A stretch of DNA of 64,000 bases. Origin: Calditrichota bacterium (lineage in GTDB: Bacteria; Caldisericota; Caldisericia; UBA6126). The stretch's first letter is position 1. Each line of letters starts with the position of its first letter. Positions 5,999-54,917 of the stretch are shown one piece after another. The stretch spans positions 13,461 to 77,460 of the forward strand of contig DAIMET010000003.1 of the NCBI GenBank assembly GCA_036725105.1, written 5' to 3'. The notes beneath the pieces were generated by a model. That model ran no database searches. It was not told the origin of the DNA and worked only from the letters and a program-made list of their open reading frames with translations. Position numbers and translations under genes: made by a program.

Positions 5999-6796
5999 AT
6001 GAAAAATCAGATGAAACTGCACACATTTATCATGCAGTGCAATATTGGATCCCGACGGAAATGCGATGAGTTTATTCGTTCTGGGTATATCTATGTGAAT
6101 GGTCAAATTGTTGTAAAACCTGAGCATTTAATTGATCCGCAGGTTGATATCGTTTCATTTAAAGAAAAAAGAATTCAACCCGATACCACTCTGTATTACT
6201 TTCTGTTTTACAAACCTCTGAAAACTGTTACCACTACATCGGATCCTGAAAAAAGAAGAACAGTGATGGACTTTTTCCCAAAACATCTTCCCATCTTCCC
6301 TGTCGGTCGATTGGATTACGATTCAGAGGGCCTTGTGATCATGACAAATGATGGTGAGTTAGCCCATAAAATCACCCACCCAAGGCACCATATTCCTAAA
6401 ACCTATATTGTCAGAGTTAAGGGAGCTCCTGAGCTGAAGGTTATTGAGCGACTTCGTAAAGGGATATTTATGGATGGGTATCGTTCAAAGCCTGCATATA
6501 TAAGACTGTTAAATAAAAACAGACAATCGGCAGTATATGAAGTTGTCTTAGAAGAGGGCAAAAACCATCAGATACGAAATATGTTCCTTTATATGGGACA
6601 TCCAGTAATCGACTTAAAAAGAGTTGCGATTGGAACATTGAAAATTGATGCACTAAAACCTGGTCAATACAGAGTTATAACAAAAAAAGAAATGCAACAA
6701 CTATTTCAAAAATCCTTGTCAGTAAAACAAAGAATTGAGAAAAAAAGAGCTATACGAGAGCACAAAAAAGAGCAATCAAGCCAACACCTTAATTAG
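5999..6796 (+). CDS. RsuA/RluB-family rRNA pseudouridine synthase (S4 domain plus catalytic domain)
   Basis: An S4-like N-terminus (GSRRKCDEFIRSGYIYVNGQIV), the catalytic GRLDYDSEGL motif, and GKNHQIRNMF are present. The true start may be the ATG at 6011. Confidence 0.88.
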   Translation: MKNQMKLHTFIMQCNIGSRRKCDEFIRSGYIYVNGQIVVKPEHLIDPQVDIVSFKEKRIQPDTTLYYFLFYKPLKTVTTTSDPEKRRTVMDFFPKHLPIFPVGRLDYDSEGLVIMTNDGELAHKITHPRHHIPKTYIVRVKGAPELKVIERLRKGIFMDGYRSKPAYIRLLNKNRQSAVYEVVLEEGKNHQIRNMFLYMGHPVIDLKRVAIGTLKIDALKPGQYRVITKKEMQQLFQKSLSVKQRIEKKRAIREHKKEQSSQHLN

Positions 6797-9700: not shown

Positions 9701-10073
9701 AGCCATTAAAAACGTATTGCCAGGAACCAAGTAGTTTTGCACTTTTTGTTTCGAGAAGGGAGTCAACAACTTGCTTTTGATCGTTTTCTAGCTTCTTCAT
9801 ATAATGTCCTTCGTTCCATTTTGAAAGCGTATTGTTGGAAAGAAGAGTACGAAGAGAGTATCTTTTTTCAACGACTGAAAGTCCCCTGCATTTTACTATA
9901 ACTGTAATAGGTGTTGATGCAGAGAGTAAATCAGTATTGACGGAAGTAAAATTGGAAATTTTCTCAATGTAGGACGGAGAAAATGCCCAAAAAGAACCAA
10001 CTGGTTTAATGGGTACAAAAAAAACCGTGAAAACTATTGCTACAACAACGAATTTAATAAAAGCGAGTTTCAT
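6789..10073 (-). CDS. Secreted S8 subtilisin-like serine protease with a PA-domain insert, FlgD-Ig-like domain and C-terminal dockerin-like module
   Basis: There is an N-terminal signal/anchor. The catalytic triad blocks are GIVDSGIDY (Asp), HGTHVAGIAAA (His) and GTSMATPVIAG (Ser). A PA-like block LQGKIAFIQRG is present. The C-terminus carries GDFNENGTIDEEDRLMF followed by DDKINLKDLYLIG. Confidence 0.92.
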   Translation of the reverse strand: MKLAFIKFVVVAIVFTVFFVPIKPVGSFWAFSPSYIEKISNFTSVNTDLLSASTPITVIVKCRGLSVVEKRYSLRTLLSNNTLSKWNEGHYMKKLENDQKQVVDSLLETKSAKLLGSWQYVFNGFAVSIPGYTIPFIAKNPHVEKVFLDDKLFYPVRDITIQTIGRNDIPSLKSYQETLIKPNPDIRLGIVDSGIDYQHPDFYPTGFSTDESKVAGGWDCYFPEEDLEKETPGDPDPIDDSPFTGGHGTHVAGIAAANNPTSISLHGICPDATLYAYKVFPSNHSGGAPSYTLITACEYAVRDQCSVINLSLGHPGENPSIADDSPYYDAFQATKKSGVMIVAAAGNGGSRTEYNAWPIDAPGVFSSILQVAASDDRLMQPFTIHTPIHQTTFFGQSSRFSPPFTSDLDGLDIVYCGFGSKDECNQTDLQGKIAFIQRGPKDNGITFFEKNLNAKEAGAKACIIFNYEDRSFSPSLVVEGIADPNKYDFLPCMMVSAKMEETLQGIIDGFGYISFEPKTSLISSYTSAGPCFSGDEGYFKPEITAPGTSIYSAVPSFKPEDPVPMWGKKQGTSMATPVIAGCAAILRYANPSLSIDEITALMMNTSSLLKNPLTNTPFSFLYQGAGQIDLQAAMESSLIATPPSIMMKSESIQDPVDIHIKNTSTQTISGRLSSEILSHQDFADGYIAVFDKPYVTIDPHSTETIQCWLYPNKENLPDFMEGVVWIEILPDEHNPNPSSRLHIPFMVSKSSIKTIKPPISDISLSVDTFHMNKDNFGFLSFQLNSGTITRSIFVKEDGSVSRSIDKTRNYAEQVFLYIYDEYGNQVHTIHFGETIPIGRYTFFWDGYNIYKQPFLPDGSYYFRIVIPYYEEIYHTTVQNDKETYRKVETNTRILESDPLPFSIQNSNLPPYPFLEICTPKKVRAGEIFELEIKLHNAYEGLFDVFITFDPWIKITGFDEKQGAVEVQKGTNTVRLIHHQRNASSQPISYAQLFLQSVPNGKDHIPSFIIQGTLPYQYPSDILKKHIHPTVILDEEFLLGDFNENGTIDEEDRLMFQQNLGKTSKDNTWNPIFDCFQDDKINLKDLYLIGKELPN

Positions 10074-17968: not shown

Positions 17969-18161
17969 GGAAGTGCACCTCAACTGCTAAATCTGGGCAA
18001 TGTTCCTGGCATGCTAAACAACCAATACAGGCTGCAATATTTTCGACAAAAACATAGCCAGTTGAATCGACAGCAAAAACATTCTTTGGACAAATATGAA
18101 CGCAAATACTACATCTCTTACATCGTTTCTCATTAATCAAAACATCTTTAACTTTTTTCAA
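17961..18161 (-). CDS. 2-oxoacid:ferredoxin oxidoreductase, delta subunit (2x[4Fe-4S] ferredoxin)
   Basis: A 66-aa protein with two CxxCxxCxxxCP motifs (CKRCSICVHICP, CIGCLACQEHCP). Confidence 0.9.
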   Translation of the reverse strand: MKKVKDVLINEKRCKRCSICVHICPKNVFAVDSTGYVFVENIAACIGCLACQEHCPDLAVEVHFHE

Positions 18162-18199: not shown

Positions 18200-18227
18200 A
18201 TTAAAGAAAACATTCCAGTTTTGTCAA
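18200..18227 (-). promoter_or_regulatory. Candidate promoter for oxidoreductase cluster 1
   Basis: On the minus strand there is a -35 TTGACA (18227-18222), a 16-nt spacer and a -10 TTTAAT (18205-18200). This lies about 40 nt upstream of the delta-subunit ATG, in the only gap over 30 nt in this part of the block. Confidence 0.4.
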
Positions 18228-18228
18228 T

Positions 18229-21195
18229 TTAAAGAAATGAAAAATTGGAAGAATTTTTCTTCTTTTCTATAAAAAGATGCTGATGAAATGAATTTTTGAA
18301 ATCCTCCTGATGGGTAATAAGCATGATTTTTTGGAATTGATTCTGAATCTTCAAAATTGTGTACATGATTTGATTTTTACTGGATGGATCAAGAAACCCA
18401 AAGTCTTGATCGATGCATAAAAAATCAGTTTTTAATGATTGATTCTTATGCAAAATGTTGGAAAGAGCGAGACGAAATGAAACATGTAATGAAAATTGTT
18501 CTCCCTGACTTAAAAAAGGGAATTCTACAGGATTACCATAATTATAGATGAAGGTTCGAATTCCTTTTTCTTGATCAGATTGAGTGTCGAGGTGAATTTG
18601 TATGGAGAGTGAATCCTGCGATATACTCCGGAGAATTCGATTTACATCTCTTTCTATGAGAGGTAAAACACGGCAAAGAATGTATGCAGGAAGATTTTCT
18701 TGGGAAAATATTTGTTGGCAAAATGTAACTATTTCGGTTTGTATTTGAAGCTCGGTTAATTCTTTTACCGATTTGTCATATTCTTTTTGAACTTCGTACA
18801 TAATTTCCATGTCTCGTTCATGTCTTGCAATAGAAGAAATAATGATTTCTTTTTCTTTTTGATATTCCTCCAAAGACTTTTCAACTTCTTTTAAACGATC
18901 TTCTGCTTCTTCGAGATCATGTTTTTGATAAGGGATATTTTTTATTTTTTCAATCTGATCGTTAAGATCTATCTCAAGCTTTTCTAATTTTTGTTCAACT
19001 TCATTTAATTGGTTCAATATTCGATTTTTCTCGTTTAATTTTTCATCCATGATCTTTTTTTCTGTTTCAAAATACTTGAGCTGATTAATTTTGTTCTTAA
19101 TTGTTTCGTGTTCAGGAGCACTGTAGTGAATTGCAAAAAACTTGAGTTTCACGTCGTTGATTTTTTTCCATTGGTCGTTTGCATAATTTTTTGTTTCGAT
19201 GCGACGCTTTATATCAATAAGTTGTTTTGTGATGTGAGGTAATTTTTGGTCTGCTTCCAACGCACTTGATATCTGAAGTTGAAGGTCGCTTAAGGTATTT
19301 TCGAGTATGGATTGACTAGAAACAGCATACATGGCTTCCACATATTGCTTGTCGATTGTCTTAAACCGACTTTTCAGGTTGGTGATTTTGTAAAGCGTTT
19401 TGTTCATTTCTTCTTCAATTTTGGATTCTTGTAATTTGGCCCGATAGAGGTTTTCAGTCATCTTTCCTAGATTCGATTTGTAATCTTGGATGCGTAAAAA
19501 GAAGGCCTGCAATTCGTCTTCTTGGTCAAAATCTGAGGAGAGAACAAGAATTTCACTTTTCAGTGTTTCAATGTGATTAGAGATACGCTGAATAGTGTTT
19601 TTATTCTTTTCAAGAGTAGTTTCTCTCATTTCAAGATCTCTTCGATAGTTCAGTAGTATATCTGCTTCTTTCTCTTTGTTGAGTGGTGTACCACATAGGG
19701 GACAGCGATTTTCTGTAATCTTTGGAAGCTCAAGAAAGTGAATTTTTTCACGAAGACGGACAGCCATTTCGTAAAATTTTTCATTCTGTATCAAAAGATT
19801 GTGTTTTTTACTTTGTTCTATTTCGATGTTATTTTGAAGTAGCTTCAATTTTTCTTTGTTTTCATGAATGGTTTGGAGTTTTTTCTTTGTCGAAGTTTCT
19901 TTCTGAATAACCTGCTCGTATTCTGCTATCTGTTTAGCAATTGCATTACAGGTTTCAAGTATGTTCAATTTTTCCTGTTTGAGTGATCCAACATTTTCAT
20001 TTAAACTATCGACTTGATCTTGGATATCATGTTTTTCTTGTTCAATGGTGTTAATTTGATAGCGCTTTTTTTCCATCTCTTTCAGTTTTGACTGAATTTC
20101 ATGCATTTTAAGATTCAAATCCGGTAAAAGACTTTTCTTCTCAGAATACTCAATTTCTTTTTTCTCTAGTTCATTGCGCTGTGTTTTTAATTCCATTTCT
20201 TCTTGGTCAATATTGGTTTGAATATCCTTCATTTGAAGCTCTAGTCGCTGTCTTTGTTCTAAGTTTTCATTGAACACTTTGTTCCTTTGAATAAGATCAA
20301 GTAGTTGTTTATAACCATTCTCAATTTCATGCTGCAGTTGAATCGATTGCTGCAATTCATTAATCTTTTCCAGCAGGATGTTTCTCTCTTTATGATGGTC
20401 ATTTTGATAGTTTCGCAGTTGATGAATCTGATCCATAAGGTTCGACTTGCGCTCTAAAAGATTGTGGATCTGTAAAATTTTATTTTTTAAGGATTGAATG
20501 GCTTCGTTAGAATTTTGAATGTGTTCTTCAAGCTCTTTTTTTTGTAGAATCTCCTCGTCAATTTTTTTCTGGAAAACTTTCTTTTGGATTAGTTTATCTT
20601 TATTTTTTTGAATAAAATCTTCCAAAAGACTTTCTCTGATTTTATTTTGTGAATAGTCTTTTTGCGTTTGTTTGTAGGACTTATTATATGCATCGAGTCG
20701 TAAAAAATGCGATAACTTTTTATAACGATCACTTGGTGTATATTCTAAAAACTCCTTTTGTGTTGAAAAGGAAGAGCTCATTATAGTTGTCATAAGAAGG
20801 TTTTCGAGGCTTACATTTACAATTGAGTCAATAGTGCTTTGAGTATCATCTACTGTTGAATGTAGAATAGTCTTCCAATAGGATTTCCTTTTTTCTTTTA
20901 TCTCAACAGAGGGACTTGGAGATAGGACTCTCTTGATTTTCCACAGGCTAGAATTGTTTTGAAAAACACACTCTGTAAATGAATCCTCTTCACCAAAATG
21001 AACCAGAGAAGAGGAATTGCATTCCTGAGGATTTCTAGCAAAACCAAAGAGTGTAAACAACATGGCATCAACAATACTACTTTTCCCTGCACCATTGTTG
21101 CCAGTTATGATGATACTTCGAGTATTTGATAGATCGAGCTGATGGGTACCCTGATAGGATAAAAAGTTGTGAAGAGTGATCTCAATTGGAATCAT
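18229..21195 (-). CDS. sbcC: SbcC/Rad50-like coiled-coil ATPase with a variant Walker B (D-Q) and variant signature motif
   Basis: The N-terminus is MIPIEITLHNFLSYQG and Walker A is GNNGAGKSS. A coiled coil of about 700 aa carries a central CPLCG zinc hook. The C-terminal head has LSQGE (instead of LSGGE), FLCIDQDFGFLD (instead of hhhhDEGFG.LD) and the H-loop LITH. The start is set at 21195, since the ORF-track N-terminal extension is not Rad50-like. Confidence 0.85.
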   Translation of the reverse strand: MIPIEITLHNFLSYQGTHQLDLSNTRSIIITGNNGAGKSSIVDAMLFTLFGFARNPQECNSSSLVHFGEEDSFTECVFQNNSSLWKIKRVLSPSPSVEIKEKRKSYWKTILHSTVDDTQSTIDSIVNVSLENLLMTTIMSSSFSTQKEFLEYTPSDRYKKLSHFLRLDAYNKSYKQTQKDYSQNKIRESLLEDFIQKNKDKLIQKKVFQKKIDEEILQKKELEEHIQNSNEAIQSLKNKILQIHNLLERKSNLMDQIHQLRNYQNDHHKERNILLEKINELQQSIQLQHEIENGYKQLLDLIQRNKVFNENLEQRQRLELQMKDIQTNIDQEEMELKTQRNELEKKEIEYSEKKSLLPDLNLKMHEIQSKLKEMEKKRYQINTIEQEKHDIQDQVDSLNENVGSLKQEKLNILETCNAIAKQIAEYEQVIQKETSTKKKLQTIHENKEKLKLLQNNIEIEQSKKHNLLIQNEKFYEMAVRLREKIHFLELPKITENRCPLCGTPLNKEKEADILLNYRRDLEMRETTLEKNKNTIQRISNHIETLKSEILVLSSDFDQEDELQAFFLRIQDYKSNLGKMTENLYRAKLQESKIEEEMNKTLYKITNLKSRFKTIDKQYVEAMYAVSSQSILENTLSDLQLQISSALEADQKLPHITKQLIDIKRRIETKNYANDQWKKINDVKLKFFAIHYSAPEHETIKNKINQLKYFETEKKIMDEKLNEKNRILNQLNEVEQKLEKLEIDLNDQIEKIKNIPYQKHDLEEAEDRLKEVEKSLEEYQKEKEIIISSIARHERDMEIMYEVQKEYDKSVKELTELQIQTEIVTFCQQIFSQENLPAYILCRVLPLIERDVNRILRSISQDSLSIQIHLDTQSDQEKGIRTFIYNYGNPVEFPFLSQGEQFSLHVSFRLALSNILHKNQSLKTDFLCIDQDFGFLDPSSKNQIMYTILKIQNQFQKIMLITHQEDFKNSFHQHLFIEKKKNSSNFSFL

Positions 21196-22351
21196 GGATA
21201 CCTTTTTCTGAGAGATACTTCCAGCAAGCTTCGCGAATTTCACCTTGAAGTTCCTTTGGAAATTTGGATTGCTTTTCATCAAAAAAAGCATTCATGTAGT
21301 TATCAAGAGGTAATATTTCTTCATCTCCTACAAAGCAAAGGCGTTTACCTTGTTGTTCAATGCTATGGATATGGAAGCAATGATCTTCAAAGAGTTGATA
21401 AATTTGTTGAATAGAAAGTTTAGCATCTGTATGGAGTAATATTCTGGTGATGTGTTCTCGATAGTTGTTGAGTAAGAATTCTTCATTCAGCTTTTCAATA
21501 GTTTCTTTTTCAGAATTAGCATTAATACGTATCAAAGCAGTTTGTCGTTGATTTTCGTTGTGAATAAAAGCTGGTTTTGTATCGGCATGTAATGTATTAA
21601 AGACAACAAAACCTCTTTCAATTGATGAATCGGAAAACTCAAACTCTCCTAAAGTGCCTGGATAAGAGAACCAAGGACCACCTTCATGTAGACGTTCAAC
21701 TCTCTTATACGGTTGTCCTCCCAGTGCATAATAATGAAAGGGAAGATTTTTCAGATATTCCATATCAAGAATGGGTAGATCAGGCAGAAGGAAGAAAGGT
21801 TCTAGAGGCTCTATTTGTGCTTGCATGAATAGAATTGAGAAATAGTCATTTTGAATTTTGGGAATCAGCGTAGCGATATGCTTTTTTGCTGACTCTGCAA
21901 ATGATGAAGGATTTTCAGCTGTAGAGTGAAAAGTATTATATGGAATTGCAGCGATTTGAAGAGTTTCCTCCTCTTTTTTTATAAGAATGCAATCGTTTTT
22001 GCGAATGATATGGAGGTAGTTATTAGATATTGACTGCAGGGTTTGTAAAAAAGAGTGACCTTGGCACTCTTGATCATATTTACCCTCAAGAATAACAATA
22101 TGAATTTTAGATTGGATACAATCTCGCACACCGTCTGTTAATATTGATTGAAGATAATCACTGGGAAGAGATGAAAAGAAGAAATTTCCCGAAAACAAAA
22201 CTGCATCAACGGCATTAGTTTTTGCATATTGAGTTATGTAGGCCCAGTATCTTGCATAGTCATGTATTTGAGAAAAATGATACAAAGAGGATTCTCTTTT
22301 TCCCATGTTCTGGATTCCAAGAAAAAAATCTCCTGTTTGTAAAATTTTCAT
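21182..22351 (-). CDS. sbcD: SbcD/Mre11-like protein with degenerate metallophosphoesterase motifs
   Basis: Length, position upstream of sbcC and overall motif spacing match SbcD. The motifs read GDFFLG (in place of DxH), SGNFFF (GD), EGKYD (GNHD) and ALGGQP (GHxH). The ATG overlaps the minE stop as ATGA. Confidence 0.7.
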   Translation of the reverse strand: MKILQTGDFFLGIQNMGKRESSLYHFSQIHDYARYWAYITQYAKTNAVDAVLFSGNFFFSSLPSDYLQSILTDGVRDCIQSKIHIVILEGKYDQECQGHSFLQTLQSISNNYLHIIRKNDCILIKKEEETLQIAAIPYNTFHSTAENPSSFAESAKKHIATLIPKIQNDYFSILFMQAQIEPLEPFFLLPDLPILDMEYLKNLPFHYYALGGQPYKRVERLHEGGPWFSYPGTLGEFEFSDSSIERGFVVFNTLHADTKPAFIHNENQRQTALIRINANSEKETIEKLNEEFLLNNYREHITRILLHTDAKLSIQQIYQLFEDHCFHIHSIEQQGKRLCFVGDEEILPLDNYMNAFFDEKQSKFPKELQGEIREACWKYLSEKGIHDSN

Positions 22352-22581
22352 TGATCTTTTTCTAACTCGCTTCTTTTGATAGGCATATCAGCGATTAACT
22401 CGTAAGCAGTTTGATATTGAGTGCGGGTAATTCGAATATGTAGCTTTCTTTTGTCAATGGGAAAGTATTGACTGAGAACAGCTGCTAATTTTTTCCGTAA
22501 GTCTCGTTCACTTTTTGGAGAAAGAACTTTACGATCTTCGTCTAAAATTCGTTTTAAACGATCTGTTAATTTTGACGCCAT
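22348..22581 (-). CDS. minE: Cell division topological specificity factor MinE
   Basis: A 77-aa protein immediately downstream of minD. The central DLRKKLAAVLSQYFPIDKRKLHIRI matches the MinE pattern. Confidence 0.8.
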   Translation of the reverse strand: MASKLTDRLKRILDEDRKVLSPKSERDLRKKLAAVLSQYFPIDKRKLHIRITRTQYQTAYELIADMPIKRSELEKDQ

Positions 22582-22590
22582 ACGATCTCC

Positions 22591-23388
22591 TTATGATGCA
22601 TTGTTTTTCATTTTCTCCCAGATAGATTTTGATGCAGGTGCTTTCTCTTGTATGGATTTCTTTTTGTCAATCAGCTTTTCAGCAATAAGTTTAATATCGT
22701 TTGTAACTGTGAAACTACTTTGATACACAAAAGGTACACCCGAATTGTTTTGACGTAATACTCTTTCATCCTCTGAAATAACTCCTAGACAGGGAACATT
22801 CAAAAGATTGATTATGTCTGGTGCGGTTATGTAATAACTTCGACGACTCAACTCTTTGCGATACCGATTAATGATGAGAAAGATGTCCTTTTTAATACGG
22901 TGGTTTTCAAGTAATGCTAAAACTCTATCTGCGTCGCGAATCGAAGATATTTCTGGATTTACAACAACAATCGCTTTTTTTGCAAAGAAGATCGATTTGT
23001 TAAATCCTTCCTCAATACCAGCAGGTGAATCTATAATGATATAGTCAAACATGGTTTCTAAATCGGTCAGTACCTGATGAAATTTAAATAGGTTGACATC
23101 TTTTTTTAAATCACTTTGTGAAGCAGCGATTAGAGCTAGATAATTATGTGTTCTTTTATCGTAGACTAGAGCTTCTTCTAGTGAACTTAGGCCTTTGGTT
23201 AAATCAACAATGTTAGATTTTACTCTTCGCTCCAGACCGATAATCATGTCTAGGTTGCGTAAGCCAATATCCATATCAATAACAACAACACTTCTTTTGT
23301 GAAGTGCTATGCTTGTTCCAATATTTGCAACTAAAGTTGACTTTCCTACACCACCCTTACCGGATGTGAAAACAATAATCTGGGCCAT
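22591..23388 (-). CDS. minD: Septum site-determining ATPase MinD
   Basis: The deviant Walker A SGKGGVGKST, DMDIGLRNLD and a C-terminal amphipathic tail are present. Confidence 0.95.
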   Translation of the reverse strand: MAQIIVFTSGKGGVGKSTLVANIGTSIALHKRSVVVIDMDIGLRNLDMIIGLERRVKSNIVDLTKGLSSLEEALVYDKRTHNYLALIAASQSDLKKDVNLFKFHQVLTDLETMFDYIIIDSPAGIEEGFNKSIFFAKKAIVVVNPEISSIRDADRVLALLENHRIKKDIFLIINRYRKELSRRSYYITAPDIINLLNVPCLGVISEDERVLRQNNSGVPFVYQSSFTVTNDIKLIAEKLIDKKKSIQEKAPASKSIWEKMKNNAS

Positions 23389-23389
23389 A

Positions 23390-24103
23390 TTAATTCTGTG
23401 TCATTTTAACGATACTGACTTCTCCTTCATTGAAATAAATATAGACAGGAATAGAAACTTCATTAAGTGAGGAGATTGAACCATCCAGAGTTTTATCGGC
23501 AGCATAAACGCGCATAGCTTTCATTCCTTGGCAGGCAAGAAGAGCTTGCTTGCATCCAGGCTTATTTCCAAAACCAACTTCTCCTTTAATGGATCCAAAA
23601 ACATAGAGTGATTTTCCCGCAAAGACCTTAGCACCGGAGTGAACGTCACCAAAAATCACAATATTGCCCGGTGATTGTACAACTACTCCAGCCCTAACAG
23701 CTTTTCCAATTACAAGAAATTCATTTAGATCCACTGATTCTTCCGAAGAAGCAGGGACGGTAGTTGGTATATCATATTGATTTGATGAAGGTGTAGTTGG
23801 GGAAACAGATGCTGGATTTTGAGATTCAGATGGATTTTCTCGATAGGTAAAAACTTGTTTTTTCATCAAGTAATGGAACATTGTGCGAACCATTCCACCT
23901 TCATCGTCAGTTAGTTCTCGTTCAAAACCTGTTGCGTATAAATCAACACTTGAACCAAAAAAATCTTGTTTCTTTTTATATATGGAAGCAGCTTTGCGGA
24001 TGACTCGATCAAATTCATAGTCTTTGAGCATCAAGGACATTAGGATTCCTTCTGAAAATCCTTTAAAACTTACAACTGAGTCTGGTGTTCTTTTTGAGGG
24101 CAA
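23390..24103 (-). CDS. minC: Septum site-determining protein MinC
   Basis: The C-terminal beta-helix pattern is present (VRAGVVVQSPGNIVIFGDVHSGAKVFAGKSLYVFGSIKGEV). Its position upstream of minD fits. Confidence 0.85.
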   Translation of the reverse strand: MPSKRTPDSVVSFKGFSEGILMSLMLKDYEFDRVIRKAASIYKKKQDFFGSSVDLYATGFERELTDDEGGMVRTMFHYLMKKQVFTYRENPSESQNPASVSPTTPSSNQYDIPTTVPASSEESVDLNEFLVIGKAVRAGVVVQSPGNIVIFGDVHSGAKVFAGKSLYVFGSIKGEVGFGNKPGCKQALLACQGMKAMRVYAADKTLDGSISSLNEVSIPVYIYFNEGEVSIVKMTQN

Positions 24104-24118
24104 TTATTTCACCTCCGC

Positions 24119-25918
24119 TTAGTAAAGTTCATCATAGTATAGTATAAAATCTTTCAAGTAAGGTGCTAGTTCACTAGCATATTCAAATGAAGAATTTTCA
24201 AACATAATGAAAGCGACACAGGATGGTTTTTCGTAAGGAAACATGGCACCCATCCAAAGATGTTGCTGGGTTTCTCTTTGACCTTCCACAAGGGCAGTAC
24301 CTGTTTTTGCAGCAATGTGTAATGACGGTATGTTAAGTCCAGTTGCTGTACCAGGATAAACTGTTGTTTTATAAAGCCCTTCTAAGACAAGTTTATAATA
24401 TTCTTCAGAAATGTTAAAGGTAGTGGACTGATGTTTAAATTGAGGGTGAAGATCAATAAAAGTTTTCTCGGTGGAGGTTTTTTTTAGCAAATGTGGAGTA
24501 ATATTGGAGTCTCGAGCGGCGATAATACCATATAGTTTTGTCATTTGAAGAGGTGTTACAGAAAGAAAACCTTGCCCAATTCCTAAATTCATTGAATCAC
24601 CACGATACCAAGGAACTCCTTTGAATTTTTCTTTCCACTCAGGAGTACCCAGAAACCCGCTTTCTTCATATGTTAGATCAATACCAGTTTTTCGTGAAAT
24701 CCCCCCATACTGCACTGCAAAATCAACAAAGCCTTCAATGTTAAAGCGATCAGCTAACTTATAAAAAAATACATCGCATGACACCTGAATCGCTTCAATA
24801 AGCTTTATGTATCCATGAGAAGATGGATATACCCAACATCGATACTTATCTTTTTGACCTGGAATATCTAATGATCCTTCACAAAGAATGTTTTCCTGTT
24901 GCGTGATCAGAGATTCCTTTAATCCATAGAGTGCAATTAGTGGTTTAAACGTAGAGCCCGGGGGATACTGCCCCATAGAGGCGATATTGAAGAAAGCACG
25001 ATTTTCAATCCATTGATTCCATTTTTCGACGGGTCTCGGGCCAGAGAAAAAATTCGGATCGAAACCAGGGTTTGATACAAAAGTAAGGATTTCTCCGGAA
25101 GGAATATTCATCAGCAGTAAGCAACCACGGTGGTCCGAAAGGATTTCTTCAGCCTTTTTTTGTAAACGAATATCTACGGTGAGATATACATCATCTCCCT
25201 TGATAATATCCTTTTCTGTTGTTTCTTTTTGAATAGAACCAAAAACATTGATGGTTTGGTGTACGATACCTGGATGGCCATGGAGAATGTCTTCATAATA
25301 TCTCTCTATACCAGTTTGACCTATTCGTTCATTTGGCTTGAAACGAACAAAAGCAGGATTCTGTAAATCATCCTTTGTAATCATTCCAGTATATCCTAAT
25401 ACGTGACATAGTGAAGAATTATGTGGATAGTATCGCTTAAAACCTTCTTTCATGAAGATCCCTTTTAACTTGTATTTGTTTTCCTCAATGCGTGTTTTTT
25501 CTTCATAGGTAAGATTTTCTTTTAAAAGAACTTCCGAATAAGAATACTGCTCTTCAATTGTGGTCACTGTTGTTTCTTGTGGTAAACCAATGTACTGCTC
25601 TAAAAGAGAAGCAACATGTTTTATATCAGGGATTTCATTCGGGGATGCGTATAAATGAAAAGTTGGAACATCTTTAGCTACTACGATACCGTTGCGATCA
25701 TATATATTTCCCCTTGGACTTTCTTGGGTAAGAGTTCTACTATAGTTGTTAATTGCCATATTTTTATACTTTTCTTGGTGGAAAGCCTGCATTTGGAAAA
25801 TCCGAACGAGCAAGAAAACAAAACTTACTACGATCAAAAAAGAAAAGAGAATCATTTTAAAGGGATGAATATCTTTGTCGACCAAACCTTGCAGGATATT
25901 GTGAGGGTGATATTTCAT
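24119..25918 (-). CDS. mrdA: Penicillin-binding protein 2 (elongation-specific transpeptidase)
   Basis: An N-terminal TM segment and a PBP dimerisation region are present. SxxK is STFKP and KTG is KTGTA. The gene follows mreD. Confidence 0.92.
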   Translation of the reverse strand: MKYHPHNILQGLVDKDIHPFKMILFSFLIVVSFVFLLVRIFQMQAFHQEKYKNMAINNYSRTLTQESPRGNIYDRNGIVVAKDVPTFHLYASPNEIPDIKHVASLLEQYIGLPQETTVTTIEEQYSYSEVLLKENLTYEEKTRIEENKYKLKGIFMKEGFKRYYPHNSSLCHVLGYTGMITKDDLQNPAFVRFKPNERIGQTGIERYYEDILHGHPGIVHQTINVFGSIQKETTEKDIIKGDDVYLTVDIRLQKKAEEILSDHRGCLLLMNIPSGEILTFVSNPGFDPNFFSGPRPVEKWNQWIENRAFFNIASMGQYPPGSTFKPLIALYGLKESLITQQENILCEGSLDIPGQKDKYRCWVYPSSHGYIKLIEAIQVSCDVFFYKLADRFNIEGFVDFAVQYGGISRKTGIDLTYEESGFLGTPEWKEKFKGVPWYRGDSMNLGIGQGFLSVTPLQMTKLYGIIAARDSNITPHLLKKTSTEKTFIDLHPQFKHQSTTFNISEEYYKLVLEGLYKTTVYPGTATGLNIPSLHIAAKTGTALVEGQRETQQHLWMGAMFPYEKPSCVAFIMFENSSFEYASELAPYLKDFILYYDELY

Positions 25919-26391
25919 GAGGGAATTTTTCTTTTTTCAAAGTGAGTATTCATTTTTTTCTGCAGATACAGCAAAATAGGATAGGGTATCATCAGAGCAA
26001 CGAGGATTTGAAGTAGAAAAGAAGCCCATATTGATAAAGAAACAAATTGTGACATAAACAGCAGGTAGAATGGAAATAAAAGAAGAATTTCTGCTTGAAA
26101 CAAGACCAGCGAGGAAATTTGAAAAACCTTTTGGGATATATAGTAAAAGAGGATCATAAAACCATATGCAATAGCAACTGGAAGAATGAGTGTATGAGGG
26201 ACGTAGCTTAGTTTTAAGAGAAGTAATGGAACAGACAGAGCAAGAGAAGTATTTTCAAAAAGAGCAATTCCACCAATGACTACAACAATAGAGATGTCAA
26301 TCCAATAGGTGGCTGGAAAAAATGAAGGAAAAAAAAACAAATCAAGAATGATTGCAACAAGTTGAAGGATAAAAAAGGTAAACCACGTCAT
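25915..26391 (-). CDS. mreD: Rod shape-determining protein MreD
   Basis: A 158-aa polytopic membrane protein between mreC and pbp2, with 4-nt overlaps on both sides. Confidence 0.8.
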   Translation of the reverse strand: MTWFTFFILQLVAIILDLFFFPSFFPATYWIDISIVVVIGGIALFENTSLALSVPLLLLKLSYVPHTLILPVAIAYGFMILFYYISQKVFQISSLVLFQAEILLLFPFYLLFMSQFVSLSIWASFLLQILVALMIPYPILLYLQKKMNTHFEKRKIPS

Positions 26392-27209
26392 TGAAATACA
26401 AATACTTCAGTCAAGGTTGAAATATTAAAAGATGGTTGAACAATTGCTATGGAATGAATTGAAGAAGAAGACTCAATTGAATCAACAACTCCAAGAATAA
26501 GGTTATTCGGTAGTGAAGAGTAACTGCTTACAACAACAACATCGTTTTCCTTGAAATCTTGCTCTTGATAAAACTTTACAAACAAAAAGTCTCCTTGCTT
26601 GTCATATGCTAACGTACCGTTAATATTGTTTCGAAGATTTCGGATGCTGATAAAGGATGATTCGTCATATATTGATAAAACATCAGATTCCAAAACGCCG
26701 ACGCGAGAAATTCTTCCGACTAATTGAAAATGAGTCTTTGCTGTTCCTGTAGAAATTGGACTTACTACAGCAGCATTATCGGATACTTTCAAGTTTGTTC
26801 CAGCATTGAGAGTAAAATTCATGGGGTTGGTAGCATCCCGTATCAAAATTGAGCAAGGCAATAGGTTGCTATATTGCTGTTGAATCCTGAAAAAAGAGAG
26901 AAGACGTTGATTTTCTTCTTTTACTTGTTCCAAGACGGTAATCTGAGCAAGAAGTCTTTGGTTTTCATCTTTAAGAGAGTTAACTTTTTCATTAAGTGAT
27001 GGGTATTGTCCAATATTTTTGAAAAATCTTTGTACAGAATGTGAGCTCTTTGAAACAACATTTCCTATTGGTGCAAGAACAGACCGACTGACCGTAAGTG
27101 AGATAGTAGAAAACCGAGAGGTATTGTAGATAGACCAAAAAACAATGAGTACAACAGATAACAGGATGGTAAAGACAAAAATGGACCAACCTTTTTTGGG
27201 AGTTATCAT
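26388..27209 (-). CDS. mreC: Rod shape-determining protein MreC
   Basis: An N-terminal TM segment, a coiled coil (LKDENQRLLAQITVLEQVKEENQRL) and a beta-rich C-terminal domain are present. It lies downstream of mreB. Confidence 0.88.
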   Translation of the reverse strand: MITPKKGWSIFVFTILLSVVLIVFWSIYNTSRFSTISLTVSRSVLAPIGNVVSKSSHSVQRFFKNIGQYPSLNEKVNSLKDENQRLLAQITVLEQVKEENQRLLSFFRIQQQYSNLLPCSILIRDATNPMNFTLNAGTNLKVSDNAAVVSPISTGTAKTHFQLVGRISRVGVLESDVLSIYDESSFISIRNLRNNINGTLAYDKQGDFLFVKFYQEQDFKENDVVVVSSYSSLPNNLILGVVDSIESSSSIHSIAIVQPSFNISTLTEVFVFQ

Positions 27210-27212
27210 GAT

Positions 27213-28250
27213 TTACCGATAATACTTCACTTTTAGGAGTAATGGCAAGAGCTTTTCAAGATTTTCAACTATCTTTCCAGCTCCAAGAGCTACGCAGAGA
27301 ACAGGATTTTCGGCATTTGAAACCAAAATACCCGTGCCTTCTGAAATATATCGCGCCATACCTCGAATGAGAGAGCCACCACCTGCAAGAAAAATACCTC
27401 TATCTATGATGTCGGCTGCTAAGTCAGGGGGAGTTATTTCTAATGTGGCCTTTAATGCTTCCATGATACTAATCAACACATCGTTTAGAGCAATTCTCGT
27501 TTCTTCTGATGTTATGGTAACGGTTCTGGGAAGTCCTGTAATCAGATCCCGTCCTTTAATTTCAGCTGATGCAATGTCGTCTGATGGATAAGCCGTCCCA
27601 ATCTCGATTTTTATCTCTTCGGCAGTGTAAATGCCTACAAGAAGATTATACTGCCGTTTTAAGTATTGGAGAATAGCTTCGTTCATTTCATCACCGGCGA
27701 TGCGAATAGAGTTCTTGGCTACAATACCATTTAGTGATACAACAGCAACTTCACAAGTACCACCACCAATATCTACAATCATATTGCCCGTGGGTTCATT
27801 TACAGGTAAATTAGCTCCTAGCGCTGCTGCCATAGGCTCTTGAACAAGACCTACATATTTCGCACCTGCTTGATATCCAGCTTCAATAACTGCTCGCATT
27901 TCTACTTCCGTGATACCAGAAGGAATTCCAATAACAAGTCTAGGACGAAGTCTTCCTAAAAGACCCTTGCGTGCACCAACTTTTTGAATTAGATATTCAA
28001 TGAGCTTTTGGGTTACTTCAAAATTAGCAATAACTCCATCTTTTAATGGACGAATGATTTGTATGGCTTCGGGAACTCTTCCTGCCATGCGTTTCGCTTC
28101 ATTACCGATGGCAATGATTTGCCCATTTTCTCTTTGGACTGCTACAATAGAGGGTTCACGTAGCATAATTCCTTTACCAGCAATATAGACAAGTGTATTT
28201 GCAGTTCCTAAATCAATTGCAATATCTTTACTAAAATGACCAAATCTCAT
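27213..28250 (-). CDS. mreB: Rod shape-determining actin homologue MreB
   Basis: DIAIDLGTANTLVY, VDIGGGTCEVAVVSL and GIFLAGGGSL are the actin-fold phosphate and adenosine motifs. Confidence 0.97.
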   Translation of the reverse strand: MRFGHFSKDIAIDLGTANTLVYIAGKGIMLREPSIVAVQRENGQIIAIGNEAKRMAGRVPEAIQIIRPLKDGVIANFEVTQKLIEYLIQKVGARKGLLGRLRPRLVIGIPSGITEVEMRAVIEAGYQAGAKYVGLVQEPMAAALGANLPVNEPTGNMIVDIGGGTCEVAVVSLNGIVAKNSIRIAGDEMNEAILQYLKRQYNLLVGIYTAEEIKIEIGTAYPSDDIASAEIKGRDLITGLPRTVTITSEETRIALNDVLISIMEALKATLEITPPDLAADIIDRGIFLAGGGSLIRGMARYISEGTGILVSNAENPVLCVALGAGKIVENLEKLLPLLLKVKYYR

Positions 28251-28796: not shown

Positions 28797-29769
28797 GAGA
28801 GAGAAGGTACAAATATATTGAAGATTGTGCTACGTATTGATTTTGTATACATTGATTAGGTTGGTGACCAACTAAAAAAAAGTAAGTGGATAAAAAATCT
28901 GATTCTAAACCACTCCAAGTAACGACTGTTGCAGAAGAAATTTCAGGTATCGCAGATCCAGTTTTTGGATGTATAATGTGGCAGTATGTTACTCCATCAT
29001 ATTGAAAAGACTGATGTTTTGATGAAGAAGTAGATACAAATCCTTTTTGAACCTGAATTCCTTTTTCAGTAGCCTTGCTGAAAGGATTTTCGATACCTAC
29101 ATATAGAGGATCTTTCGTTGAGATGCATAAATTACCACCAAAATCTACATAGTAGTACTCCATGTTGTTCAGAATAAAATACTCAGCAATTCTATCAAGA
29201 GTATACCCTTTTAATATCCCTGACAAATCAATATACATCCCTTTCTTTGGCAAATACACGGTCTTTTCAAGTGTATTTAATACAATTTTCCGATAATCCA
29301 CATATTGTATCGCGTTTTGAATCTTTTTCTTTGAGGGAACAGATGGTTGTGGGTCATGAAAGTGATACAAATCCATAAGAGGTCCCATTGTAATATCAAA
29401 GATGCCATCCGATTCCTGGCATAAACGATATGCCTGCTCAATTAAAAAAAAGGTTTCATCATCAACACAAATAGGCACATATCCAGCATTTTGTTTAATA
29501 CGATAAAGGTCAGAACCAATGGTGTAAACATTCATTTTTTTATCAATGTCTTGAACCATTTCCATGATGTTATTTATATGATGATCTGAATATTCATTAG
29601 AAGGTAGTTTGATAGATAAAAACGTGTTCATCGAAAAAAAAGTTCGTTCTGTCCAAGGAGAAATCTCAGGTGGATGACATGAAGAAAGTAAAACACTGAC
29701 TAAAACTACTACCGTGATAATGCATATGTGTCTGATATAAGGCATACGTCGTGGAATGGGATCAATCAT
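28759..29769 (-). CDS. apbE: FAD:protein FMN transferase ApbE (lipoprotein)
   Basis: The lipobox is LLSSC. FDITMGPLMDLY, DLSGILKGYTLD and VDFGGNL are ApbE blocks. An alternative start lies at 29745. Confidence 0.88.
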   Translation of the reverse strand: MIDPIPRRMPYIRHICIITVVVLVSVLLSSCHPPEISPWTERTFFSMNTFLSIKLPSNEYSDHHINNIMEMVQDIDKKMNVYTIGSDLYRIKQNAGYVPICVDDETFFLIEQAYRLCQESDGIFDITMGPLMDLYHFHDPQPSVPSKKKIQNAIQYVDYRKIVLNTLEKTVYLPKKGMYIDLSGILKGYTLDRIAEYFILNNMEYYYVDFGGNLCISTKDPLYVGIENPFSKATEKGIQVQKGFVSTSSSKHQSFQYDGVTYCHIIHPKTGSAIPEISSATVVTWSGLESDFLSTYFFLVGHQPNQCIQNQYVAQSSIYLYLLSREFDIYAKNYSS

Positions 29770-32566
29770 CCTTGGATTGAAATCGCTTTACAATGTCATG
29801 AACAGAATATACAGTGATCCCCTGCAGAATTTTAGGTAAACGATAGGAAGTGATATAAAATCGAATTCGCTTCTTTTTACACAAAGCAAATGCTCGTCCT
29901 GCTTCTTCAAAAGTGTCGCAAACATCAGACATTGTATTTGCTTTGGCGATATCATTGGAATTCAACTTGACTGTTTTTATGTGGGATACTACAGCAGGAT
30001 TTAGTTTTTTTGATGAAATAGATGATATAAAGCCTTTTGTGAAGTTTTGTAGATATCCTTCAATAAACAAACGGTTTGCAGCTCCAGGATCGAACACAAC
30101 CGAAGTGTAAAAAAGATTTTCAAAGTTTGAAACCATAGTTTCTTTGCTGTGTTTTTCTGAAACAGGTTCTTGGTAAATCTTTTGGATCATTTCCTTTTTA
30201 ACTGAGGAGGTTGAATGGTCATCATCTTCTTTACAGGTATCTGAGAGATTTTTTTTAAGAGTATTTTTAGAGGTGAGAACTTCATCTGGATGATTCTGAG
30301 TAACTGGATCAAGAGTAGAAGATGGTTTTACTTTTTCATCTGAAAGTGAATTGTCTTGTTTTTTTTGGTTTGTTCGGTGTATTTCACTAAAAATCTTTTC
30401 TTCGTCTAAGTGCAGGGAAGGAATCTCATTTTGGAAATCTATATTTTCTATAGTAGGTTCAGATATTCGTATGCCTTTACGATGTTTCTGTGGACTAGAG
30501 TTTGTTGTTGAGTTCAAAGATTCTTCCGTTTGTTCTTCTGGTTTACTTTTATCTTCTTTGCTTTCCTTTGGGTTAGGATTCAACCATTTTGGCTTGTGAG
30601 CAGGATCTAAGCGAATTCTTTTCTTGGTGGTTTCTTGTGTAGACTCTTCTGAAGGGTCTATTTCGTTTGATGTTGGAGGAGTGATTTCAGATTCTTGTTG
30701 TGATTTTTCACTTAAGTTAACCGTTGCATTAATTTGAGGAGTCTCAATGGAGTCATTTGCATGGGGATATTTTCGAACGGATTGTACAGAGGAAAAATCC
30801 TCTTCATCATTCATTTCAGTAGAATCTAAAGATTCAGGTGAGAGAGGAGAACAAGGGGGTATTATGGATTGTGATTCAACCAATGGCATACTAATGGGGT
30901 GTTTTTTTAATATCAATAACAAAGCTAGAATGAGGAAAAGTACGATTAATCCTCCAAAGAAAATGGTGAATATGAGAAGATCGGGATTAAAAATTTGATG
31001 AGAAAAAGATCTCCATCTATCAACAGAAAAGAACATACTATAGTGAAAGTTACCATCTGATGGATTTGCAAAAAGAGCACCTTCATTTGAAGGTGAAGTG
31101 TGAAATGAGTAAGTTAACTGAGAGTTCTCAATAGGGGGGACATAATAAAAAAGACCTTTATTTGTGTAATTGTGAAGTTGCAGACACAAAATCGAATTGT
31201 CAGAAGAAATGTTGATCTTTTCTAGTGGAACAGTTGAAAAATAGTTATAGATCGCATATTCATCCAAGGTTACATTTTGATCATTGGAAGGATCTAATGT
31301 TGATATTTCAACTTTCGTATGGGGATATTGACTGTAAAGCTCAATCAAGCTTTTTTGATCTTTTGAAAATTCTTTAGAAATTTTGGAGGATAACAGTGTA
31401 AACACTTTGTCTAAATATGCACCATAGCGGCCAGGAGAAAATTCACCACCAAAATTTTTGCCCGAAGAGAATGTAAGTACATAAAATGGTACGTTAGAAG
31501 AAGCGGTAAAATAGACATATTCTGGCAATGATGGAGTATAGCTTTGGATGAGGGAGACAAGGGTTGATTCTCCTGCATTTTGTAATGATATGGTCTCTTT
31601 TTTGTCTTTGTAAAGAAGTCGAATATCTGCATTATCAAAAGGAGAATAGAAAAGAAGATCGCCGAAGCAAAATCCATTTACATCAGCTGAGTTTCCCAGT
31701 ACATAGGAGAAATTTTCATTATCCAAATAGCCAAACTGTGCTGTAATAGGACTACTTGCAAGAATAGAGTAAGCTCCGGGTGGAAGATCATCAATAAAGA
31801 TACCTTGATTGGGTTGAATTGTAATATTTTTTACCTGAAGCTGGTCTTCGTCAAGAATTTTCACAATAGTATCTTTTTGATAGGAGGATAACCAAAGATG
31901 TCCAGGGTGGTAGAAAAAAAGATGATCTCCGAATAAAGTTGTTGTATCGCTATCCTCAGCTTCTTTGTTTGTAAGAGGATCTAGTGATAAAGAGCTAGCA
32001 TAAACAAATATAGGTTTTTTTGATTGAACAAGAATGTTCGTTGGATTCAACGATGTATAAGTGTACATTTTTCCTTTTTGGAGAACAAAAGTCTCGAGTA
32101 GTTTCTTGTTGTCAGTAAGTACTTCGATGTGGTTTTCATCTTCGCAAGAAATGATGTAAGCGTTTTCGTAGTTTACGAAATGATGCAATGTACCAGCTTC
32201 AGTAGAGATAGGAATTATGGATGGAACAGAATCTTTACGTTCTCGAATTTGAAAAACTTTCGTTTCTTCACTTTTTAAAGGAGTGTTGAGGAGCAATATG
32301 TTTTCCTGAGAGGATATACTTACACTGCTTTGTATGGAGGAACTGCTTGCGTCAGCTCCTTCTTCAATAAATTGATAACTACCATTTGGAGGTTTTTCAA
32401 GCGGTATACGGATCTGGGCTCGAGAATACGATGTTGCACTATTGTTTTTTATAGTTAAATATTGTGGTTTTGCTCCATATACAAAAAAAATGGGTAAAAC
32501 AAATAAAACCATAAATATGGAAAGGACGAAATTTCGTACCCTTCTGAAAAATTTATTGTTATTCAT
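29762..32566 (-). CDS. Orphan 934-aa bitopic membrane protein (large ectodomain, TM segment, disordered cytoplasmic linker, small alpha/beta C-terminal domain)
   Basis: This is an intact ORF overlapping the rnfB stop and the apbE start by 8 nt each. It has a signal/anchor at aa 12-31, a TM segment at aa 529-553 (nt 30908-30982), a S/E/K/P/T-rich linker at aa ~556-812, and a C-terminal globular region of about 120 aa. I recognise no family. Confidence 0.75.
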   Translation of the reverse strand: MNNNKFFRRVRNFVLSIFMVLFVLPIFFVYGAKPQYLTIKNNSATSYSRAQIRIPLEKPPNGSYQFIEEGADASSSSIQSSVSISSQENILLLNTPLKSEETKVFQIRERKDSVPSIIPISTEAGTLHHFVNYENAYIISCEDENHIEVLTDNKKLLETFVLQKGKMYTYTSLNPTNILVQSKKPIFVYASSLSLDPLTNKEAEDSDTTTLFGDHLFFYHPGHLWLSSYQKDTIVKILDEDQLQVKNITIQPNQGIFIDDLPPGAYSILASSPITAQFGYLDNENFSYVLGNSADVNGFCFGDLLFYSPFDNADIRLLYKDKKETISLQNAGESTLVSLIQSYTPSLPEYVYFTASSNVPFYVLTFSSGKNFGGEFSPGRYGAYLDKVFTLLSSKISKEFSKDQKSLIELYSQYPHTKVEISTLDPSNDQNVTLDEYAIYNYFSTVPLEKINISSDNSILCLQLHNYTNKGLFYYVPPIENSQLTYSFHTSPSNEGALFANPSDGNFHYSMFFSVDRWRSFSHQIFNPDLLIFTIFFGGLIVLFLILALLLILKKHPISMPLVESQSIIPPCSPLSPESLDSTEMNDEEDFSSVQSVRKYPHANDSIETPQINATVNLSEKSQQESEITPPTSNEIDPSEESTQETTKKRIRLDPAHKPKWLNPNPKESKEDKSKPEEQTEESLNSTTNSSPQKHRKGIRISEPTIENIDFQNEIPSLHLDEEKIFSEIHRTNQKKQDNSLSDEKVKPSSTLDPVTQNHPDEVLTSKNTLKKNLSDTCKEDDDHSTSSVKKEMIQKIYQEPVSEKHSKETMVSNFENLFYTSVVFDPGAANRLFIEGYLQNFTKGFISSISSKKLNPAVVSHIKTVKLNSNDIAKANTMSDVCDTFEEAGRAFALCKKKRIRFYITSYRLPKILQGITVYSVHDIVKRFQSKDD

Positions 32567-44970: not shown

Positions 44971-44994
44971 AATTTGTAACTTTTGGAGGTATAT

Positions 44995-54881: not shown

Positions 54882-54917
54882 ACTAACATCATATCACAAA
54901 AAGTGAGGAACCGTAAG

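Follow-up and report, generated by a model that had tools for sequence, protein, structure and literature searches.

A 64,000-nucleotide stretch of a Caldisericia genome (the window; contig DAIMET010000003.1 of assembly GCA_036725105.1, positions 13,461 to 77,460) carries, directly behind minE, two overlapping genes whose products are related to SbcD/Mre11 and SbcC/Rad50, and probably make up an Mre11-Rad50 pseudoenzyme, able to bind or tether but not to cut. We use SbcD* and SbcC* for the degenerate proteins of the window type and sbcD* and sbcC* for their genes; the source organisms of this degenerate clade are uncultivated and represented by metagenome-assembled genomes (MAGs). The Mre11-Rad50 complex is universal, and the structural and enzymatic shares of its biology have long been debated, mostly from engineered mutants. 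The Caldisericia pair would be a natural separation-of-function case, in which both active sites have decayed in one bacterial clade while the complex has been kept under purifying selection.

Decay of the two catalytic centers

SbcD* has no match in Pfam, PF00149 included, and reaches the NCBIfam model TIGR00619 (sbcd) at 5e-11 with 42.8 bits, which is under the cutoff of 77.65. Its AlphaFold (AF2) model, which was built on the family alignment and has a predicted local distance difference test score (pLDDT) of 71, matches the crystal and cryo-EM structures of Mre11/SbcD 3tho_B, 3av0_A, and 4nzv (Foldseek E about 1e-15, template modeling score 0.6-0.76), and the protein is accordingly modeled with the Mre11 nuclease and capping-domain fold. 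The metal ligands were checked by aligning the family profile with residues 1-261 of T. maritima Mre11 and, in addition, with canonical Caldisericia SbcD. Both alignments agree with the sequence-only reading of this DNA that every metallophosphoesterase motif is substituted (Table 1), and in both the changes fall on the ligand positions themselves, although the motif I Asp and the trailing motif III Asp are retained. The deficit amounts to five of the seven Mn2+ ligands plus the catalytic His, and the motif IV loop has a 5-residue deletion relative to the canonical sisters. The motif losses are found in all nine aligned SbcD* sequences of the clade, one of which is without even the motif I Asp. 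Given what these residues are known to do in Mre11, SbcD* should be unable to act as a phosphodiesterase, and we infer that nuclease activity has been lost.

What SbcD* has gained is a clade-specific block on a capping-domain helix (residues 271-304, TALIRINANSEKETIEKLNEEFLLNNYREHITRI), with the consensus EKL[ND]EEFLLN[ND], which is absent from canonical Caldisericia SbcD in the alignment. The longest invariant run of the SbcD* family (EKLNEEFLLN) sits in this block, which is also the most conserved region of the protein in window-based comparisons.

In SbcC*, both head lobes match Rad50 structures (5e-16), and the AF2 model has a Rad50-type head, an antiparallel coiled coil over residues 168-830, and an apical hook, with Rad50 7zr1_D as the top Foldseek match. 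The hook lies at residues 498-501 and is recognized by Pfam Rad50_zn_hook with an E-value of 0.0018, its CPxCG being invariant in the clade. Unlike its canonical relatives SbcC* does not match PF13558, and it scores 70.6 bits against TIGR00618, under the cutoff of 478.5. The retention of Walker A, the CPLCG hook, and the H-loop, which had been read from the sequence, is borne out by the alignments, Pfam, and the model, and the head elements conserved across the clade are GNNGAGKS, the Walker B IDx, the D-loop GFLD, and the H-loop ITH, together with the signature Ser.

The same reading had described SbcC* as a classical E-to-Q ATP trap. The Glu to Gln replacement and the LSQGE signature are real in the window protein, but the trap does not extend to the clade, in which the Walker B acid position is Q in three, N in two, E in one, and D in one of the seven aligned members, so that Gln is just one of the residues through which this position has drifted, not a conserved feature. 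The signature varies as well, with SQGE, SSGE, or STAE in place of SGGE, and the Q-loop MQG, a further loss that had not been listed before, is replaced in all seven members by SSS or a similar string. The pattern resembles a hydrolysis site decaying as a whole more than a trap tuned for ATP, and from the established roles of these residues in Rad50 and ABC ATPases, ATP hydrolysis by SbcC* is presumably impaired.

A deep-branching degenerate member, L009/L014 (SbcC* at L009:11124-14096), still has its Walker B Glu (FIDEDFG), with LSSGE as the signature, though it lacks the Q-loop and all SbcD ligands, and may be an intermediate in the order of loss, with the nuclease and Q-loop going first and Walker B later. 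The SbcC* model also contains a paired break in both arms at residues 283-338 and 666-707 (window about 20182-20349 and about 19075-19200; pLDDT 50-66), and the most conserved arm motifs lie in or next to it (one beginning QHEIENGYKQLLDLI, then IETKNYAxDQWKK and KNKINQLKYFETEK), with versions of them also present in the canonical SbcC P0161. This paired break may be a conserved arm joint or a binding module.

Canonical orthologues and the shift of constraint

The best match of SbcC* outside its own family is P0161 (locus L016, 993 aa), a canonical SbcC with MQG, SGGE, IDEGFG, and TH, which is 30% identical over its full length. The gene order at L016 is apbE-hpre-mreBCD-pbp2-minCDE, followed by a canonical SbcD of 413 aa (8763-10004), SbcC, and porDABG; this SbcD has all five motifs and a PF00149 match and is 23% identical to SbcD* over its full length. 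The arrangement is the same in the canonical Caldisericia lineages L021, L025-27, and L028, and in all four lineages an sbcD with every motif (PF00149) and an sbcC with MQG, SGGE, and IDEGFG (PF13558) stand right behind minE. Canonical Caldisericia SbcDs form about 24 clusters. The canonical proteins resemble the window pair in their slot (minCDE-sbcD-sbcC-porDABG), their lengths, and their arm architecture, the arm motifs EIExGY, CPxCG, EAxQKLP, ETKxY, and ETEKK being shared with SbcC*; unlike the window pair they have all Mre11 motifs (DLH, GD, GNHD, AH, and GHIH) and all Rad50 motifs.

By both position and sequence comparison, the window pair is the orthologue of canonical sbcDC. A neighbor-joining tree of pbp2, minD, porA, and porB places the degenerate clade as monophyletic against the four canonical lineages, and catalysis would most simply have been lost in a single event in the clade of the window pair. 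Comparative gene order indicates that sbcDC behind minE, with all catalytic motifs, is the ancestral Caldisericia arrangement, from which the window pair is derived. Since canonical sbcDC occupies the same slot in four sister lineages, the linkage to min is older than the loss of activity. A survey of related genomes had been proposed for the recurrence of degenerate copies after minE, and the degenerate pair does recur there, but the place is held by canonical sbcDC in the sister lineages.

The degenerate pair has a narrow distribution. A word-indexed search returned only 7 relatives of SbcD*, and an exhaustive profile search of 1.84 billion representatives gave 3 clusters below 1e-30, with the canonical SbcDs set apart from them at 1e-26. 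When GTDB species genomes were scanned, the degenerate pair turned up in 6 species, all of them Caldisericota/Caldisericia MAGs. The six MAGs of the clade are CAZOYI01, CAZBOU01, CAYRWA01, JAXGOZ01, JAGLCW01, and CAYRBR01, and anaerobic digesters are among their habitats. Among the 150 nearest representative SbcD clusters complete motif loss is confined to this family, and no independent degenerate SbcD lineage was found there, the single missing motifs in those clusters being fragments or artefacts of regular-expression windows. Within the searchable library, we found no literature relevant to Caldisericota SbcC/Rad50, to SbcCD with MinCDE, or to an inactive Mre11 or pseudonuclease, and none on a naturally nuclease-dead, ATPase-degenerate Mre11-Rad50 pair, in keeping with the earlier remark that no such system was known to have been described. 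Public records name P0003, P0004, P0158, and P0159 "DNA repair exonuclease SbcCD nuclease subunit" or "exonuclease SbcC", and because the catalytic residues are missing, these names are probably wrong as statements of function. The annotation calls for caution, as proteins labeled "exonuclease SbcCD" in this clade are almost certainly not nucleases.

Seven aligned clade loci (at least 6 GTDB species) all have uninterrupted reading frames, of about 390 codons for sbcD* and about 990 for sbcC*. The ratio of nonsynonymous to synonymous substitution rates (dN/dS), taken against relatives of 89% and 80% identity, is 0.09-0.10 for sbcD* and 0.054-0.057 for sbcC*, which is in a similar range to mreC (0.07-0.11) and pbp2 (0.05). 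By these measures the degenerate pair is functional and under purifying selection, not a pair of decaying genes. What has changed is where the constraint lies. In the canonical pair L016/L021 the SbcC head lobes, at 66% and 77% identity, are more conserved than the arms, at 43-50%. The reverse holds in SbcC*, where the deepest degenerate pairs are 31-42% identical in the lobes, 52-57% in the distal arms, and 63-71% in the hook. The weight of constraint has shifted off the ATPase head; it now falls on the coiled coil and hook and, in the partner subunit, on the new SbcD* block. At similar divergence of housekeeping genes, degenerate and canonical proteins are 24% (SbcD) and 31% (SbcC) identical, compared with 45% and 53% between the two canonical lineages, and both subunits therefore evolved faster in, or leading to, the degenerate clade.

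Gene order behind minE and the rival readings

The pair belongs to a run of 28 co-directional genes (44027 to 15506, minus strand) in which no junction exceeds 21 nt except for 67 nt before porD. The array contains a trxB-like gene, valS, a folC-like ligase gene, a zinc-ribbon protein gene, rnfCDGEAB, an open reading frame (ORF) of 934 aa, apbE, a heptaprenyl-PP synthase component I-like gene, mreBCD, pbp2, minCDE, sbcDC, and porDABG. From the 934-aa ORF to porG the gene order is the same in every degenerate-clade locus examined, and most of this part (from apbE or hpre on, as far as the contigs reach) is also found in the canonical loci. In every Caldisericia locus examined minE and sbcD overlap by 4-8 nt or abut, except in L028, where there is a 5-nt gap. 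Six aligned degenerate-clade loci contain no conserved promoter inside minE; a candidate sbcD* promoter there, TTGACA-16-TCGAAT in the window, is not conserved in relatives and was rejected. An independent promoter and a lack of conserved min linkage had been named as evidence that would separate the pair from the min genes, and what the alignments show instead is an invariant AATGA junction.

Behind sbcC*, in the 67-nt gap, lies a sigma-70-like sequence, TTGACA-16-TTTAAT, which is conserved in 6 Caldisericia loci even though PorA identity among them falls to 75-78%. It is followed by a conserved TCAACGTA and TGAAAGCxGG, with the porD ribosome-binding site nearby and a TTG start at 18159-18161 (minus strand), and the whole is likely the promoter and leader of porDABG. 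The consensus promoter scan passed over it owing to its rule on position 2 of the -10 hexamer. A pattern scan found no terminator after sbcC*, the conserved por promoter standing there instead, and an Rfam scan of the window gave no match. Because this invariant promoter begins right after the sbcC* stop, sbcD* and sbcC* are plausibly the final genes of their transcript and probably the last gene pair of the transcription unit. The earlier placement of the pair as distal genes of a cell-shape and division operon holds as to the tight coupling with minE and the probable terminal position, but the "operon" is one part of a 28-gene array of mixed content. Since this compact array mixes unrelated functions, adjacency to minE is weak evidence of a common function, and the comparison across lineages indicates that the pair has its place behind minE by inheritance and that this place does not point to a new function dependent on Min.

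If the pair is a pseudoenzyme, it would still assemble as an SbcD*2-SbcC*2 head with hook-joined arms, with SbcC* still binding ATP but hydrolyzing it slowly or not at all, and the complex would bind, bridge, or tether DNA, or scaffold other proteins, without cutting; selection would act on the arms and hook and on the new surface of SbcD*. Such a complex might serve repair, by tethering or sensing ends together with a separate nuclease, or else the organization of the chromosome or division. Several observations weigh against this. The leftover Asp/Asn/Asp set in SbcD* could in principle bind metal, and L009, with its Walker B Glu, suggests that part of the clade may still turn over some ATP. 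Complex formation is deduced from the coupling of the genes, and the C-terminal Rad50-binding region of SbcD*, where two helices are predicted at residues 349-382 (the helix-loop-helix region), is poorly conserved and modeled with a pLDDT below 50. Neither a second canonical sbcCD in the 64-kb window or the fetched flanks nor any other break-repair gene in the window was found.

One rival proposal is that the pair is still an enzyme, with Asp7, Asn56, Asp93, and Gln177 forming an altered metal site, or with SbcC* hydrolyzing ATP in a noncanonical way, so that ends or hairpins are still processed. We consider this improbable, even though no member departs from the motif III Asp, Walker A, the Walker B Asp, or the H-loop His, all but one have the motif I Asp, and L009 has its Walker B Glu. 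Every member is without the four His ligands and the catalytic His, and the loop of motif IV is gone. Constraint is lowest in the head domains, and what used to be active-site positions differ among clade members (D/S, K/Q, and Q/Y/F), which argues against a new conserved catalytic site. Drift at the catalytic positions, together with the faster evolution of both proteins than of their canonical counterparts, is also what would be seen in functionless relics that survive only by being embedded in an essential transcription unit, but with dN/dS of 0.05-0.10, intact frames in all seven loci, and strong conservation of the arms, the hook, and the new SbcD block, it is very hard to believe that the genes are relics.

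The sequence-only reading had gone on to wire the dead Mre11/Rad50 scaffold functionally to MinCDE, so that it would coordinate nucleoid and septum, tether the chromosome when the cell divides, or serve as a cytoskeleton-like element. Taken further than that reading went, the idea would have SbcC*D* kept after the loss of catalysis as a hook-and-arm DNA tether that works with Min and couples nucleoid position or sister-chromosome bridging to septum placement. The tight minE-sbcD junction throughout the examined Caldisericia and its invariance in the degenerate clade speak for such a link, as does the absence of a conserved promoter within minE, and the unusual conservation of the arms and hook is what is expected of a structural protein. 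The one nearest SbcD relative examined from outside Caldisericia is not min-linked (the adjacent list entries are annotated Anaerolineae/Chloroflexi), so the linkage is probably lineage-specific. However, the same linkage with an all-motif sbcDC in four sister lineages makes it independent of the loss of catalysis, which it predates, the array that also holds rnf, apbE, valS, and por has equally tight junctions, and there is no sign of contact with the Min proteins. We therefore regard a functional tie to Min as unlikely; were it true, the class-wide coupling of sbcDC to minE would reflect a real and so far unknown role of Mre11-Rad50 in bacterial division. The non-catalytic, structural role that had been suggested remains the most reasonable reading of the pair, but the specific connection to Min loses its main support.

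The features of the locus are collected in Table 1. The ORF coordinates agree with both overlaps described earlier, and all motif strings and positions reported for the pair were verified, apart from the Walker B range 18406-18411, which spans DQ alone, IDQ lying at 18406-18414. The mechanical ORF of sbcC* begins at 21291, but the ATG at 21195 (MIPIE...) is the start in all homologues and is hence taken as the true one, which gives 988 aa and the 14-nt overlap; in relatives the sbcD-sbcC junction is an overlap or, in L005, a direct abutment.

Table 1. Coordinates of the sbcD*C* pair, its motifs, and the neighboring genes in the window
Feature	Position	Strand	Evidence
sbcD*, coding sequence of Mre11-fold putative pseudonuclease, 389 aa	21182-22351	-	ORF and translation; TIGR00619; AF2 model; dN/dS
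SbcD* motif I remnant GDFFLG (canonical DxH to D-F-F; Asp kept, His to Phe)	22316-22333	-	profile and sister alignments
SbcD* motif II remnant SGNFFF (canonical GD to GN; Asp to Asn)	22175-22192	-	profile and sister alignments
SbcD* motif III remnant EGKYD (canonical GNHD to GKYD; Asn-His to Lys-Tyr)	22073-22087	-	profile and sister alignments
SbcD* motif IV site FMQAQ (canonical His-bearing TAHLT loop deleted; Gln177 nearby)	21815-21829	-	profile and sister alignments
SbcD* motif V remnant ALGGQP (canonical GHIH to GGQP; His-x-His to Gly-Gln-Pro)	21710-21727	-	profile and sister alignments
SbcD* capping-domain clade-specific block	21440-21541	-	family conservation comparison
sbcC*, Rad50-type coding sequence, 988 aa	18229-21195	-	Pfam AAA_23, SMC_N, Rad50_zn_hook; Rad50 structures; AF2 model; dN/dS
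SbcC* Walker A GNNGAGKSS, intact	21076-21102	-	clade alignment
SbcC* Q-loop site IMSSSF (MQG lost, SSS instead)	20767-20784	-	Rad50-structure and sister alignments
SbcC* zinc hook CPLCG at coiled-coil apex	19690-19704	-	Pfam, alignment, model
SbcC* signature LSQGE (canonical SGGE)	18499-18513	-	Rad50-structure and sister alignments
SbcC* Walker B FLCIDQ (Asp kept, catalytic Glu to Gln)	18406-18423	-	Rad50-structure and sister alignments
SbcC* H-loop LITHQ (His962 invariant)	18307-18321	-	clade alignment
ATGA overlap of minE stop and sbcD* start	22348-22351	-	AATGA invariant in 6 aligned degenerate-clade loci
14-nt overlap of sbcD* 3' end and sbcC* start	21182-21195	-	junction recurs in relatives
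Sigma-70-like likely promoter of porDABG, just past sbcC* stop	18200-18227	-	both hexamers invariant in 6 loci
minE	22348-22581	-	PF03776, TIGR01215
minD	22591-23388	-	Pfam/NCBIfam
minC	23390-24103	-	Pfam/NCBIfam
pbp2	24119-25918	-	Pfam/NCBIfam
mreD-like ORF, 158 aa	25915-26391	-	without Pfam match; named by position only
mreC	26388-27209	-	Pfam/NCBIfam
mreB	27213-28250	-	Pfam/NCBIfam

Among the neighboring genes, the 934-aa ORF upstream of apbE (29762-32566, minus strand) has no Pfam match and is found in the same position in the degenerate-clade loci at 42-76% identity; a large family-less ORF takes this position in L016. At the locus of the closest relative, L013 (JAXGOZ010000001.1), minC and minD were matched by tblastn only in part (107 and 172 aa, respectively) at about 8250-9240, for which masked Ns, an assembly problem, or a disruption could be the cause. 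Elsewhere, the window encodes a protein of 1225 aa that combines S-layer-homology repeats with a 5'-nucleotidase C-terminal domain (44983-48660, plus strand) and two subtilases, each longer than 900 aa and with Ig-like domains (6789-10073, minus strand, and 54903-57665, plus strand), all three of which are probably secreted or envelope proteins.

Relation to known systems

Several structural and defense proteins of the SMC-Rad50 type, namely arcadin-4/Rkd4, LmuB (Lamassu), JetC (Wadjet), and DndD/PbeC, share with SbcC* a P-loop head and a coiled coil and give weak profile matches, mostly in the N-terminal Walker A region. None of them reaches its family cutoff with SbcC*, and their partner genes are absent at the window locus. 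The identity of SbcC* does not depend on these weak matches, because synteny establishes its orthology to SbcC. An anti-phage system of the Lamassu, Wadjet, or Dnd/Pbe kind was considered and rejected, as PADLOC gave only partial or weak matches of SbcC* to generic SMC-like models (LmuB best) and none for SbcD*, and no partner genes occur in what is a conserved housekeeping block. An arcadin-4-like cytoskeletal partner was set aside too, the NCBIfam match covering only SbcC* residues 5-51, and so was an SMC/MukB condensin-type complex, given that SbcC* has a hook instead of a hinge, that its SMC matches are confined to the N-terminal P-loop, and that the neighbors are min and por genes, with no kleisin or KITE.

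The closer comparators are E. coli SbcCD and the Mre11-Rad50 complexes of T. maritima, M. jannaschii, and P. furiosus (6s6v, 3tho, 3av0, and 1ii7), which have the same folds, a zinc-hook coiled coil, and adjacent overlapping genes; in these ATP-dependent nucleases, however, the metal site and the ATPase site are complete, whereas the window pair is without both. Laboratory mutants of Rad50 with the Walker B E-to-Q change, and nuclease-dead His mutants of Mre11, are expected to give ATP-bound, non-cutting complexes that still bind or tether DNA. In these separation-of-function mutants the same positions are struck as in the window pair, namely the Walker B Glu and the motif III His. The window pair differs in being natural, in having both subunits affected together, in having also lost the Q-loop and the signature Gly, and in a Walker B position that is not fixed as Gln. 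The canonical orthologues in the same slot of the sister lineages provide a matched pair for the biochemical comparison of the two kinds of complex.

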